IMG/VR virus record: IMGVR_UViG_3300036762_000188
Length of the DNA: 64,000 bases
Direction: 5' to 3' (one strand)
DNA from: a virus
Taxonomy: Duplodnaviria > Caudoviricetes
A program made the translations under genes and the position numbers. The notes beneath the pieces are model-generated. The model ran no database searches. It was not told the DNA's origin and saw only the letters and a list, made by a program, of their open reading frames with translations. Below are positions 56,855 to 61,464 of this stretch, piece by piece. Position 1 is the first letter of the stretch; each line of letters opens with the position of its first letter.

Positions 56855-56887
56855 GGGTACCCCCTCTTACTTAAAAAGAGGGGTTTA

Positions 56888-56942: not shown

Positions 56943-58034
56943 ATGTCTAATACTATCGTTAATATCCCAGGCCGTGAATCACAAACTCTTACTGGTATGG
57001 TCCTGAGCGAGAAGGAAGTTCGCGACGCGTACGCAGGTGTGATCGACCTCGGTTCTTACGTAGCCACTACAACTAAATCTGGAGATGATACTATTATCAC
57101 CTTCGCTAACCGTACTGGCACTAAAGGTGCTGATACTATCGTTAATATCCCTGGTCGTGAGTCTCAGACCCTTACTGGTATGGTCTTGAGCGAGAAAGAC
57201 GTCCGTGACGCGTACGCAGGTGTAATTGACCTAGGCTCTTACGTAGCTACAACTACTACTTCAGGCGGTAACACTGTTATTACCTTCGCTAACCGTACTG
57301 GCACTAAAGGTGCTGATACTATCGTTAATATCCCAGGCCGAGAATCCCAGACTCTTACGGGTATGGTCCTGAGTGAGAAAGACGTCCGCGATGCTTACGC
57401 AGGTGTGATTGACTTAGGCTCTTACGTAGCTACAACTACTACTTCAGGCGGTAACACTGTTATTACCTTCGCTAACCGTACTGGTACTAAGGGTGCCACT
57501 GCAGTGATTATTGATGGTGTCCAGGTCCTGTCTACTCCGGTAGATATGGATGAAGAGGATGTGCTGGATATCCTTGAGTCGGGCGCCTTTGGCGATGTCA
57601 CTGACTACGAGTATACTACTCAGGAAGTAGGTAATACTACCTTCATGACTTTCACCCCAGTTATGGGTGAACTCGAGGCTCTTTTAAATAAGAACAAGCC
57701 TGTAGATTTGAAGGCCCTATTACTGCAAGGGCTAGTTGATAGTGACTCTTCAGACTTAGAGGAAGATGAGGGTGAAGACTATTATTGTTTTGATGAGTTT
57801 GATGAGTTTGATGAAGGCGAGGAGGACGAAGACGAGGTAACCTCTACCGAAGTTATCATCGACGGTATGACGCCTCGTGTTCTACAGGGCATCATAATGG
57901 ATGCTAGTATGCTGATCGCAGCTTACCGTGACACTATTGACTTAAGCCAGTATGTAGCAGAAGAGCGTGTGCAGGGCAGTGTACTTAAGGTATATTTTAC
58001 AAAACGCCAAGGTGCTAAAGGTGCCCTGGCGTAA
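56943..58034 (+). CDS. polyubiquitin-like precursor (PRTRC protein C-type Ubl repeats)
   Basis: Three 61-aa units ending TFANRTGTKG, a divergent fourth unit, an acidic linker, and a fifth unit ending FTKRQGAKG-ALA; adjacent E1/E2/JAB genes. Confidence 0.8.
   Translation: MSNTIVNIPGRESQTLTGMVLSEKEVRDAYAGVIDLGSYVATTTKSGDDTIITFANRTGTKGADTIVNIPGRESQTLTGMVLSEKDVRDAYAGVIDLGSYVATTTTSGGNTVITFANRTGTKGADTIVNIPGRESQTLTGMVLSEKDVRDAYAGVIDLGSYVATTTTSGGNTVITFANRTGTKGATAVIIDGVQVLSTPVDMDEEDVLDILESGAFGDVTDYEYTTQEVGNTTFMTFTPVMGELEALLNKNKPVDLKALLLQGLVDSDSSDLEEDEGEDYYCFDEFDEFDEGEEDEDEVTSTEVIIDGMTPRVLQGIIMDASMLIAAYRDTIDLSQYVAEERVQGSVLKVYFTKRQGAKGALA
56946..57494 (+). repeat. three tandem 183-bp coding repeats
   Basis: Unit boundaries at 57128/57129 and 57311/57312; differences are mostly synonymous. 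Confidence 0.95.
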
Positions 58035-58040
58035 TTAAAT

Positions 58041-58062
58041 AAGGGGCTTCGGCCCCTTTTTT
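58041..58062 (+). terminator. intrinsic terminator after the poly-Ubl gene
   Basis: AAGGGGC-TTCG-GCCCCTT plus T run. Confidence 0.88.
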
Positions 58063-58079: not shown

Positions 58080-58601
58080 ATGGATTTTAGATCTTCTTGC
58101 ATGGCAAGAATACGCACTCTATTAGAAGAGTACGGTTCTACTAACGGATTACACCTACCAATCGGAGCTATAAATAGCACTTTAGGTTATATAGGGCCTT
58201 CAGGAGGCGTCTCTAATAATAATAATAGATTAATTTACTTAATGGTGGGCGCCTTGACAGAACCTGCCAGTTATAACCACTGGCTTTTAAATGGCAGATC
58301 TATACCTATATATCTAGAGCATAACGCTAGTGTATGTATAGGCGTAGTGAGTGGGTATAGAGAACAGTTAATGGAGCAGCTCGAAAGGCTACATGGGGCT
58401 ACTGTATCTATCGTACACATGAGTGATACAGTGTCTACTGTAAGGATTAGATTTCAAGGAGGAACCCTTGAAGGCGTTATGGCTTCTTTAGTGCAGTTAC
58501 GACAGATTATATCTGATATGGTTCTTAGTGGCAGGGCGTATGGATCTACTATACCTAACGTAAGTTATATGCTAGAGGAGGGTTCACATGGAACTTCTTG
58601 A
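58080..58601 (+). CDS. hypothetical protein in the Ubl locus
   Basis: 173-aa ORF coupled to the downstream operon. Confidence 0.6.
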   Translation: MDFRSSCMARIRTLLEEYGSTNGLHLPIGAINSTLGYIGPSGGVSNNNNRLIYLMVGALTEPASYNHWLLNGRSIPIYLEHNASVCIGVVSGYREQLMEQLERLHGATVSIVHMSDTVSTVRIRFQGGTLEGVMASLVQLRQIISDMVLSGRAYGSTIPNVSYMLEEGSHGTS

Positions 58602-58860
58602 GGCTATACTCGCCGTAGAGTCTAATGTAGCCGCGTCCCCTTTAGACGCAGCCGCAGAAGAGCTAATGACATTAGAAGCCAGGGTCCCTGATATCAGCTC
58701 TATAAGTGAGGTACTGCGCGTATTAGAGCGTGGCAATGACCTGCTTAACACTATCAATAGAGGTCCAGATCGTTACTGGCATAGCACATATAATAGTGTG
58801 TTCAACTTACAAAGGATATTATCCGTACCAACTTGTTCAGCAGGAGTGATTTATGTCTAG
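58588..58860 (+). CDS. hypothetical protein in the Ubl locus
   Basis: GAGGAGG RBS; overlaps both neighbours. Confidence 0.65.
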   Translation: MELLEAILAVESNVAASPLDAAAEELMTLEARVPDISSISEVLRVLERGNDLLNTINRGPDRYWHSTYNSVFNLQRILSVPTCSAGVIYV

Positions 58861-59485
58861 TTTAATTATAAGCATGGACCGTAAGGATATCGTAACCGTA
58901 AAGGATGCTACAGGCAGCCACTTGAAAACTATGTCGGTAACGTCATTTATAAACCTGCTTAAAGCCCTTAATCCAGAGGCCGTGGATTCCGTAGGGCGCC
59001 CTATATCCCTTCCTACCAGTATACTTACCATAGCAGGTTCCCCTGCTCTATATAGTATATCTATGTACTTTCCCGAAAAAGAGGCTGTTGTACGGTGTAG
59101 CGGCACTAATTATAACATCGTACTCCCTAATATAGTGCTAGAGATAGACCTGACCGAAGGTCCTGGATGCTGGACTATCACTAGAACTAGATGGATAATG
59201 ACTGACAAGAGCCGGGTTGATTATAAACCTGAGTACGGTAAAGTTCTAGCTATGCCTAACGTGTATAGCGGCGGCAGTATGTGCTACGGCGGTAACGCAC
59301 TACCCGGCAGGATCTACCATGATTGGACTATACTAGATAGCCTGTATCATGATGTATTACTGAAATCTCCATTCAACAATGACCTAGGTGTACCTGGAGT
59401 TGGTGCAAGTGCCGACGACTGGTTAAAAACCCTTAGCGATCGCCGACTTAACGGTGATAAATTCCCATATGAAAGATTCTTCTGA
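58853..59485 (+). CDS. prokaryotic E2-like protein (Prok-E2_D/PRTRC protein B type)
   Basis: LPNIV, MPNVYSGGSMCYGGN with candidate catalytic Cys, SPFNNDL. Confidence 0.8.
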   Translation: MSSLIISMDRKDIVTVKDATGSHLKTMSVTSFINLLKALNPEAVDSVGRPISLPTSILTIAGSPALYSISMYFPEKEAVVRCSGTNYNIVLPNIVLEIDLTEGPGCWTITRTRWIMTDKSRVDYKPEYGKVLAMPNVYSGGSMCYGGNALPGRIYHDWTILDSLYHDVLLKSPFNNDLGVPGVGASADDWLKTLSDRRLNGDKFPYERFF

Positions 59486-59492
59486 GGCTAAT

Positions 59493-60566
59493 ATGTCTAT
59501 TATCATAAACCCTATTACTACCGTGTTACTTAATCATACAGAAGTGGATGACCCTAAGTACAATCACTTCATGTTCAAATATGTGCTGGAGAAGGACCTG
59601 ACGTTAACTAGTACGTCTGTCATGACCGGTGGACGGTTTATCAAGAAGTACATAGCCAACCTGGCCGGTAAGAAACTACCTGCCGACGAGATACAGCCAC
59701 TAGTTAACGGGGTTAAGATCCCTATCCTCATCATGCATCAGATCCATAAGTTCTTCATTGATGTTATGAAATTGCATTCTGGCAGTGAAGCGCAAGCTTT
59801 TGTGGTCATGAGAGACGGTGAGTACAAGATATTAATCCCTGAGCAGACAGTAAGCGGGGCTGCTGTAACCTATGACCTGACTAAGGAATTATTACCGGGC
59901 GATATTATAGTTATGGATATACACTCCCATAACTCTATGGCTGCGTTCTGGTCCGGTACAGATAACCGTGATGATAGTAAGAATACATGGATCTCTGGAG
60001 TATTCGGCAAGGTAAATACTAAGCTGGAGTATAAGTTCCGCTTCAGTGATGCTACAGGGTCTCATTATGATCTTGACATTAAGGACGTCTTTGAAGAGGC
60101 TGCCGAGGTATCGATACCTGCAGAGTGGGTATCTAATGTAAAAAAGTCGGTACTCTCACGAGCGCCTATAAGCAATTACCCCGGGTTATACCGAGGCCCT
60201 TCGAAGCCGAAGAAGTGGAAGCAGAGCCCGGGCTCTTTAGAATGGGTTGGTGGAACAGACTATTCAGAGGATGATCTATCCTTAGATACAATGATCACCT
60301 CTCTAGAAGATGCCTTAGTGGAGGACGAGTTGGTAGATATAATGACAGACATGATCGACCCGTATGCAGGGGATCGCCTAATGGTTAGTAAGGTACTGTC
60401 TAGTCTGGAAAACGCCTTCAGTGGTAACGGTAATATAGACGTATCGTTCCCTATAGGTGCCGAGAACCTATTCCATAAAACTCACACTGTATTATCAGGA
60501 TATGGTACCGATAACAGTACCATACTGACGTCACTAGCTACCGTAAAGGGTATGTACAATGTTTGA
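59493..60566 (+). CDS. JAB/MPN+ metallopeptidase (PRTRC protein A type) with C-terminal extension
   Basis: E...PEQTVS...DIHSHNSMAAFWSGTDNRDD fits ExnHxHx7SxxD; start MSIII after GAGG. Confidence 0.9.
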   Translation: MSIIINPITTVLLNHTEVDDPKYNHFMFKYVLEKDLTLTSTSVMTGGRFIKKYIANLAGKKLPADEIQPLVNGVKIPILIMHQIHKFFIDVMKLHSGSEAQAFVVMRDGEYKILIPEQTVSGAAVTYDLTKELLPGDIIVMDIHSHNSMAAFWSGTDNRDDSKNTWISGVFGKVNTKLEYKFRFSDATGSHYDLDIKDVFEEAAEVSIPAEWVSNVKKSVLSRAPISNYPGLYRGPSKPKKWKQSPGSLEWVGGTDYSEDDLSLDTMITSLEDALVEDELVDIMTDMIDPYAGDRLMVSKVLSSLENAFSGNGNIDVSFPIGAENLFHKTHTVLSGYGTDNSTILTSLATVKGMYNV

Positions 60567-61464
60567 GAGAAAATTTGAAAGCATAATATCTACAGTAGTA
60601 GTTATTGGATGCGGAGGTACTGGCTCTCGAGCCATACCTTTGATGGTGCAGATACTTAAGAATAGCCCTCGGGCGTTAGCGCCTCGCTTAGTACTTATCG
60701 ATGATGACGTAGTGGAGCATAAGAACTTAGCACGTCAGAATTTTATCAACCAGGATGTTGGCAGAAGTAAGGCAGAGGTATTGGCCGAGAGGTATTCTGT
60801 TGCAATGGACTTCCCTATTGTATCCAATAAAGCTCGTATATCTGGTAACAATCTCGTAAATGTAGTAGATCAAGCTATGCATGGAAGAGGTTGGCCTTCT
60901 ATCCGTGGTACACATAGTCCTATATTCATACTATGTGTAGATACCATGGAGGCTCGCATGGATATACTAAAACAGTTGCCGGGTGGATCTATTGTAATAG
61001 AGGCTGGTAACGAGGATACCTTCGGTAACGTCACGGTGTTTGACGTAAGTGAATTCCGAGGTGCTAACGAAGCAACTCCATTCTATGGAACTGTGGAGAT
61101 ACCTGTAATACCAGCCCCGGTAGCACGATACGAACATGCATTAAAAAACCCGTCGGTTAAAACGGGTTCCTGTGCAGATTTAGATCAATCTGCTGCCATC
61201 AACAACTTGATGGCCGCAGGGATAAACACTATACTCCAGAATATATCGTATGGTATACCTCTAAGATATCGTACTAAATTCTATGATCTGGCAGGTAGTG
61301 ATCATACAGAGATAATGAACGTACACTGGTATAATCAGGAGTATAAGTGTGCTGGTATAAAAACTGCGATGCCAATGGCACATACGGCTAGGGCTGATGC
61401 TCTGAATCGAGACTTAGCAGCAGCCCGTAAGATACCTAAAGAACTACTTGCTGCTATAGCCTAG
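60559..61464 (+). CDS. ThiF/E1-like adenylating enzyme
   Basis: VIGCGGTGS, IDDDVVEHKNLARQNF, DVGRSKAEVL, CVD....R, GN, GSCAD...Q...IN. Confidence 0.93.
   Translation: MFERKFESIISTVVVIGCGGTGSRAIPLMVQILKNSPRALAPRLVLIDDDVVEHKNLARQNFINQDVGRSKAEVLAERYSVAMDFPIVSNKARISGNNLVNVVDQAMHGRGWPSIRGTHSPIFILCVDTMEARMDILKQLPGGSIVIEAGNEDTFGNVTVFDVSEFRGANEATPFYGTVEIPVIPAPVARYEHALKNPSVKTGSCADLDQSAAINNLMAAGINTILQNISYGIPLRYRTKFYDLAGSDHTEIMNVHWYNQEYKCAGIKTAMPMAHTARADALNRDLAAARKIPKELLAAIA

Follow-up and report, generated by a model that had tools for sequence, protein, structure and literature searches.

A phage gene for a poly-ubiquitin-like precursor that probably yields two kinds of protein tag

To date, studies of the conjugation of ubiquitin-like (Ubl) proteins in bacteria have treated it as host defence, in the Bil, Bub, and CBASS Cap2 systems, and the polyubiquitin precursors of eukaryotes (UBI4, UBB, UBC) consist of identical units under purifying selection that follow one another head to tail, each with its reactive Gly and the last one capped. 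Iyer, Burroughs, and Aravind predicted in 2006 bacterial operons in which E1, E2-like, and JAB proteins are encoded together with small Ubls ending in Gly (type 6d; PMC1779556). Our literature search returned no functional study of PRTRC, which is mentioned only in genome annotation or expression data, and no mechanistic study of a phage poly-Ubl, of Prok_Ub, or of a Ubl with an acidic arm. Here we analyze a gene at positions 56943–58034 of a 64,000-nucleotide stretch of viral DNA (Duplodnaviria; Caudoviricetes; IMG/VR record IMGVR_UViG_3300036762_000188; hereafter the window). The gene encodes a precursor with five Ubl units, and intact genes for E1-like, JAB, and E2-like proteins lie downstream of it. 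On the sequence comparisons given below, it probably yields two kinds of protein tag.

With PRTRC and operon type 6d the window has in common a JAB peptidase, an E1 of the ThiF type, an E2-like protein with a conserved Cys, and a Ubl with a C-terminal Gly, for which a β-grasp fold is predicted. For its JAB and E1 proteins, the highest-ranking NCBIfam matches are PRTRC_A (E 4.5e-16; 59 bits, cut-off 101.8) and PRTRC_ThiF (E 2.7e-18; 66.2 bits, cut-off 144.75), respectively. Because both scores lie below the curated cut-offs, we treat the cassette as a divergent relative of PRTRC/Prok_Ub and not as a member. The link of the precursor to Prok_Ub is transitive only, in that the profile of its family finds the protein P0031 (E 1.8e-11). 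This protein, encoded in an operon with Prok-E2_D and ThiF genes, reaches 102.5 bits on Prok_Ub and 77.7 bits on PRTRC_C. P0031 and P0040 exceed the cut-offs of both PRTRC_C and Prok_Ub, and P0004 reaches 24.6 against a cut-off of 25. The window differs from PRTRC in that its system is phage-borne, in that its Ubl is a 4+1-unit precursor instead of a standalone small protein, and in that neither its helix and acidic arm nor its two orphan genes have a detectable PRTRC counterpart. What distinguishes it from the PRTRC/Prok_Ub cassettes is the polyubiquitin-style precursor, together with a predicted second product, conserved in the lineage, that would carry a helical, acidic/aromatic N-terminal arm.

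The likeness to polyubiquitin precursors lies in the head-to-tail units ending in Gly and in the terminal cap, an arrangement found here for four of the five units, with ALA as the cap. The differences are that the units have no sequence relation to ubiquitin and end in KG and not GG, that the last product would be made up in part of a dead unit and an acidic arm, and that processing is predicted to fall to a JAMM peptidase which the cassette itself encodes. The multi-β-grasp Ubls of the Bil and Bub operons resemble the window in having a reactive domain preceded by a further domain, in the window one of predicted β-grasp fold, and by disordered or helical regions, and in being encoded with E1, E2, and JAB; N-terminal extensions of a disordered or coiled-coil kind are indeed described for bacterial Ubls (PMC11601603). 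However, they are reported as single multidomain Ubls with extensions that are N/G-rich, coiled-coil, or DUF1508 rather than acidic/aromatic, and they belong to host defence systems, whereas the present cassette is found in a phage. The PADLOC match to BilD is insignificant (E 0.035). A Gly tail restricted to the last domain, as in the Bil/Bub Ubls, is seen here for the pair of units 4 and 5, but not for the whole precursor, as units 1–3 keep their tails. Finally, for the archaeal Caldiarchaeum ubiquitin operon (PMC6043591), an operon-encoded JAMM peptidase of the Rpn11 type is reported to trim the ubiquitin precursor and expose its Gly; that operon differs from the window in that it includes a RING E3 and has only one ubiquitin unit, which is a true homologue of ubiquitin.

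The precursor (P0003) and its parts are as follows.

56943–58034, plus strand: poly-Ubl precursor, a single open reading frame (ORF) of 363 aa
56943–57494, plus strand: units 1–3 (aa 1–62, 63–123, and 124–184), from a hidden Markov model (HMM) of the unit, 91 bits each
57495–57659, plus strand: unit 4, a degenerate Ubl unit (aa 185–239), from the unit HMM and the alignment with relatives
57654–57677, plus strand: pseudo-tail TPVMGELE in place of NRTGTKG, from the alignment of the C-terminal parts of the relatives
57678–57737, plus strand: helical segment of the linker (aa 246–265), from alignment and AlphaFold
57738–57836, plus strand: Lys-free acidic/aromatic disordered stretch (aa 266–298), from composition and a predicted local distance difference test (pLDDT) score mostly below 50
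57837–58022, plus strand: unit 5, a divergent Ubl unit of the C-type (aa 299–360) ending in RQGAKG, from the unit HMM, the unit tree, and AlphaFold
58023–58034, plus strand: ALA cap and stop codon, from the sequence
58041–58058, plus strand: terminator-like hairpin just 3′ of the precursor gene

For the unit HMM, 18 homologous proteins contributed 58 canonical units, the window's own protein being excluded. It matches five stretches of the precursor with 290 bits in total. A six-frame search of the window showed no Ubl unit outside 56943–58034. Units 1–3 all end in NRTGTKG and are joined directly, the KG of one unit being followed by the Ala of the next without a spacer. Units 2 and 3 do not differ at all in protein sequence, although their DNA is 90.7% identical, as is expected if each unit works as a tag. 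The conserved C-terminal Gly is present in units 1–3 (TGTKG) and in unit 5 (QGAKG), while unit 4 has Glu245 instead, and the residue that follows KG (P1′) is Ala at all four KG sites between 56943 and 58031, the last of these Ala being the first residue of the cap. In the AlphaFold models, units 1–3 and 5 adopt a ββαββ arrangement with a mean pLDDT of 76–96 over 10-residue blocks, which makes a minimal β-grasp fold of the units likely as far as the models go. The predicted template modeling (pTM) score of the whole is 0.26–0.36 and the linker is disordered, which fits domains that do not pack together.

Unit 5 is by sequence a true homologue of the other units, matching the unit HMM from end to end with 51.8 bits (E 4e-18), and its AlphaFold model has a block mean pLDDT of 91–95. 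In the unit tree, the last units of the precursors of different phages form a clade of their own (support 99/93), which we call the C-type and which includes unit 5 and the tail-less unit of the protein P0006. The position-1 units form a separate clade (support 98/91). Within the C-type clade, unit 5 sits on a branch of 1.79, compared to a median of 0.12.

The case of unit 4, which starts at the first base of codon 185 (57495), is different. It matches the unit HMM in register but only over HMM positions 18–52, with 8.3 bits, a score attained by none of 1000 shuffled versions of its sequence; pairwise comparison gives a z-score of 4.0 with unit 3 and of 2.6 with unit 5. Its start, comprising the first eight residues with VIIDG, resembles unit 5, and the remainder is nearer to units 1–3. 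In the alignment of the C-terminal parts, unit 4 spans the entire penultimate unit of the relatives. The stretch F-T-P-V-M-G-E-L-E there stands opposite F-x-N-R-T-G-T-K-G, which places Glu245 at the position of the reactive Gly. When AlphaFold is given the whole-protein alignment, unit 4 appears only as the helix and the last hairpin (αββ), at a pLDDT of 56–64, and when it is given the alignment of the C-terminal parts, the full ββαββ pattern is obtained with a block mean pLDDT of 81–92. In the unit tree, unit 4 has the longest branch of all (5.94), as would be expected from relaxed selection on a unit that lost its tail and ceased to be a free tag. Unit 4 is therefore most likely a decayed Ubl domain and not a second working Ubl. 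Such a dead unit, drifting fast in sequence after the loss of its Gly tail while keeping the pattern of its fold, also indicates indirectly that selection maintains the other units as free tags. A comparable tail-less unit, with 29.8 bits, is found in P0006.

Units 4 and 5 are connected by a linker with two parts. In the first, the helical segment, VDLKALLLQGLV aligns with a helix-like motif, xNLLxAIFxAV, that stands after the KG site in most of the three-unit relatives, and AlphaFold places short helices at aa 244–248 and 256–265, at low pLDDT. The second is the acidic/aromatic arm, with three consecutive FDE at aa 283–291 (57789–57815). Over aa 237–300 the linker has 24 D/E and only 3 K/R, and the fragment from unit 4 to the end of unit 5 (aa 185–360) has 176 residues, 19.5 kDa, an isoelectric point of 4.05, and a net charge of about −33. 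These results agree with the preliminary description of the locus, in which unit 4 (AVIIDG...TFMTF) had been said to lack GxKG, a very acidic stretch with three FDE to follow it, and unit 5 to end in QGAKG with ALA as a cap.

The poly-Ubl family is rare. A search of 5.8 billion proteins gave 16 homologues and one of 1.84 billion gave 38 cluster representatives, the two lists overlapping, and in a scan of viral contigs the single protein as query had no match, while the alignment as query found one locus only. The close relatives are on large phage contigs, including those of the Vibrio phages D69, D181, and D148 (about 187 kb). The proteins of the family have between one and five units, and those with a single unit end at the same tail motif. 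TGTKG makes up 98 of the 126 tails. The P1′ residue is mostly small or polar in the family (A 29, N 14, Q 12, S 9, and T 5). Of the 52 proteins, half stop at KG itself and the others carry one to five unrelated cap residues (A, N, K, C, E, EA, DA, ILA, ALLAA, INSL, IFLF, and INYSK), so that the ALA cap does not represent a special requirement.

In their common layout, the relatives begin with a position-1 unit, to which a spacer of 15–21 aa joins a second unit. The helix-like motif comes immediately behind the KG site, and an acidic/aromatic run with almost no K/R then leads to a distinct last unit. The spacer between units 1 and 2 is conserved as a type, NDIYVSGDLNLSVDGDVNINN, as seen in the related contig L001 (6995–7786) and in others (P0009–P0019); the precursor of the window is without it. 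An arm comparable to that of the window is found in at least 18 proteins of the family, the most acidic 30 residues of which include 12–21 D/E, 1–5 F/Y/W, and 0–1 K/R. In P0007, the linker and its downstream unit are found in the middle of the protein, and this unit groups beside the clade containing the C-type units (support 80/79), which suggests that linker and downstream unit move together. The same linker also occurs in P0023 and P0024, minimal forms that have two units. Judged by these alignments, the helix, the acidic arm, and the C-type unit constitute a module that is common to the phage lineage and not peculiar to the window. What appears peculiar to this phage is the loss of the tail from the unit before the linker, the strong divergence of unit 5, and the presence of three plain units without spacers.

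On this basis we propose a model in which the precursor would give three small tags and one large acidic product that is likewise used as a tag. JAB peptidases cut at the C-terminal Gly of Ubls, as is established for enzymes of the Rpn11 and AMSH types. The JAB protein of the cassette would cut after each x-G-x-K-G, in this precursor always before Ala, which would free units 1–3 as three tags of 6.3–6.6 kDa. As unit 4 has no Gly tail, cutting after each KG would leave unit 4, the linker, and unit 5 together as the last product, a 176-aa tag of 19.5 kDa from which the ALA cap would also be removed. This large product would consist of the decayed β-grasp unit, the helical segment, the Lys-free acidic/aromatic arm, and the C-type unit with its reactive Gly360. 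The E1-like protein would then adenylate the exposed Gly of each tag, and the E2-like protein would take the tag over on its Cys144 for attachment to lysines of the targets. The occurrence of the helix, arm, and C-type module in the related phages suggests that the large product represents a second class of tag. The model as a whole is inferred throughout, and we put its chance of being correct at about even. As to the two tag types from one gene that the preliminary description had proposed, the recurrence of the module and the separate clade of the C-type units speak for them, while the decay of unit 4 removes it as a second working Ubl. The structural homology of units 4 and 5 to units 1–3, on which that proposal depended, holds for unit 5 (HMM and AlphaFold), while for unit 4 it is weak and its fold depends on the alignment supplied.

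Several results weigh against this model. Unit 5 is an outlier: among 12 columns in which the 76 other units show at least 95% conservation, it departs at four, compared to no departure at all in 67 of the 76. IPGRE is replaced by IDGMT and TGTKG by QGAKG, the latter tail being unique among the 126. With these near-invariant residues missing, it is uncertain whether unit 5 would be accepted by the same E1 and JAB that serve units 1–3. The sequence signal of unit 4 is weak, hhalign against the profile of the C-type unit giving a P-value of 0.05 (54 columns), and its confident fold stems from the alignment supplied and is not independent evidence. No relative of more than 47% identity was found. 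No match to Prok_Ub (PF14454) or PRTRC_C (TIGR03738) was obtained for the whole precursor or for units 3, 4, and 5 at E-values up to 10. Foldseek with the model of the fragment gave a best E-value of at least 0.05 and nothing below 0.001, the subthreshold matches being protein L/G B1, di-ubiquitin, ISG15, and UBX. VIA-align, run against about 48,000 chain representatives, speaks for the proposal in that it returned mainly ubiquitin-like β-grasp proteins (MoaD, SUMO, ISG15, Urm1, UBX, and the TINCR Ubl) with Z-scores of 4–6.9, as well as GB1 and the N-terminal part of FdhD; these matches cover residues 1–60 of the fragment model, which correspond to unit 4, and all Z-scores are below 8.

Other searches were made with the same models and profiles. 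The BFVD structure search gave nothing at E below 0.001, and a sequence search of the PDB with the profile of the C-type unit gave only chance matches to syntaxin (E at least 0.4). The five-domain model in Foldseek led to the POTRA repeats of BamA and to linear tetra-ubiquitin, at TM-scores of 0.1–0.2; the POTRA assignment was rejected because any string of small α/β domains would match.

We have also considered that the fragment of unit 4, linker, and unit 5 is not conjugated in this phage, being either a decaying remnant, a released decoy or regulator of E1 or JAB, or an acidic binding protein, in which case only units 1–3, the amplified ones, would function as tags. The lost tail of unit 4 and the long branch of unit 5, with its missing near-invariant residues, are in line with this possibility, as is the finding that only in this phage is the plain unit present in three near-identical copies. 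However, the 179 codons of this part of the gene remain open, and the hydrophobic core pattern, the G-x-K-G end, the Ala at P1′, and the acidic arm are all retained. Moreover, the pLDDT of unit 5 is above 90 and its changes are located in the IPGRE stretch and the tail, not in the core. We consider this explanation unlikely.

A different possibility is that the precursor is not cut between the units at all, and that the whole 360-aa chain is conjugated through Gly360 after removal of the cap, in the manner of Ubl3 of the Bil/Bub operons. Uncleaved bacterial Ubls with two or three β-grasp domains and N-terminal extensions are described (PMC11601603, PMC10557695), and the pair of units 4 and 5 already behaves in this way. 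Several lines of indirect evidence favour cutting at every unit instead. The Gly tail is near-invariant on every canonical internal unit and is the same in the single-unit proteins, and the number and order of the units, as well as the spacers, vary at the KG boundaries. The protein identity of units 2 and 3 points in the same direction, as do the AlphaFold models, in which no packing between the domains is predicted (pTM 0.26), and the position of the tail-less unit on the longest branch. Conjugation of the uncut chain seems to us distinctly improbable.

That the helix and the arm serve processing only, by docking on JAB, E1, or the orphan proteins or by providing solubility, all tags being equivalent, is very unlikely, because, although the helix-like motif stands directly after the cleavage site in most three-unit relatives and the arm is disordered and Lys-free, the C-type units make up a conserved clade of their own, as would be expected if their product had a function distinct from that of the others, and JAB enzymes are generally known to cut only after the Gly of a Ubl, so that the arm would stay on the downstream unit.

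Returning to the model with three small tags and one large one, the acidic arm could act on a target by masking through charge, by steric masking, or as a docking arm for a partner. Its acidic/aromatic pattern recalls acidic C-terminal tails such as that of the single-stranded-DNA-binding protein. In a bolder version, a single gene would supply two covalent classes of tag at a constant ratio. The second class would deliver a Lys-free acidic/aromatic arm of about −30 charges to target lysines, where it would disable nucleic-acid-binding host proteins, such as defence nucleases, or recruit a partner. The notion of the arm as a nucleic-acid mimic is taken from its composition alone, and we regard this version as quite doubtful; if it were true, it would amount to a covalent form of anti-defence or host takeover of a kind not described so far.

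Whatever the role of the arm, a lineage of large marine phages carries its own predicted Ubl conjugation kit. If both products are conjugated, a single set of E1, E2, and JAB would serve two modifier classes, a compact example from nature, and this would offer a handle on what a virus gains from protein tagging in a cell that has no proteasome.

The remaining genes of the cassette are located downstream of the precursor as follows.

58080–58860, plus strand: two orphan genes (173 and 90 aa), in a position conserved in the relatives
58853–59485, plus strand: E2-like protein with the invariant Cys144, from a weak Pfam match to Prok-E2_D (E 0.12) and the alignment with relatives
59454–60566, plus strand: JAB/JAMM peptidase with HSH-x7-S-x2-D, from Pfam Prok-JAB (E 1.2e-5)
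60559–61464, plus strand: E1-like ThiF adenylyltransferase with GxGGxG, RQN, and the invariant Cys205, from ThiF (E 2e-13) and alignment

The alignment of the E2-like protein includes a product on record as Prok-E2_D, with PN...C.G in common. The JAB protein has 370 residues, of which aa 96–198 are covered by the PRTRC_A match and aa 144–189 by the Pfam Prok-JAB match, about 95 N-terminal and about 170 C-terminal residues being outside the former. The order of the Ubl precursor, a protein of about 200 aa, one of about 95 aa, E2-like, JAB, and E1 is kept in the seven relatives with enough contig, and two shorter contigs show the start of the same six-gene order.

Neither orphan protein has a family match, NCBIfam included, and the Atlas search with the 173-aa protein gave scores of 0.82 at most. 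Both are free of Lys, compared to an average of 4.6% Lys in the ORFs of at least 150 aa in the window. The absence of Lys was tried as a signature of evasion of self-tagging and rejected as a rule of the family, since the relatives of these proteins have 0–11 Lys; in most of them Lys is less frequent than Arg.

A more distant contig rich in small genes (L012, 6001–11864) encodes a five-unit Prok_Ub precursor with GTKG-A joins and no spacers. Its neighbours include Prok-E2_D and ThiF genes, and the intervening genes are different ones (132, 482, and 443 aa).

Upstream of the precursor gene, the window has a second terminator-like hairpin (56861–56883) and the ribonucleotide reductase genes nrdA and nrdB, and in the relatives, too, the cassette often adjoins nrd genes. 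In one of the related phage contigs (L006, 762–4010), the large subunit of the ribonucleotide reductase has 1082 residues, with LAGLIDADG_3 and a faint Intein_splicing match on record, which suggests the presence of an intein in this subunit.

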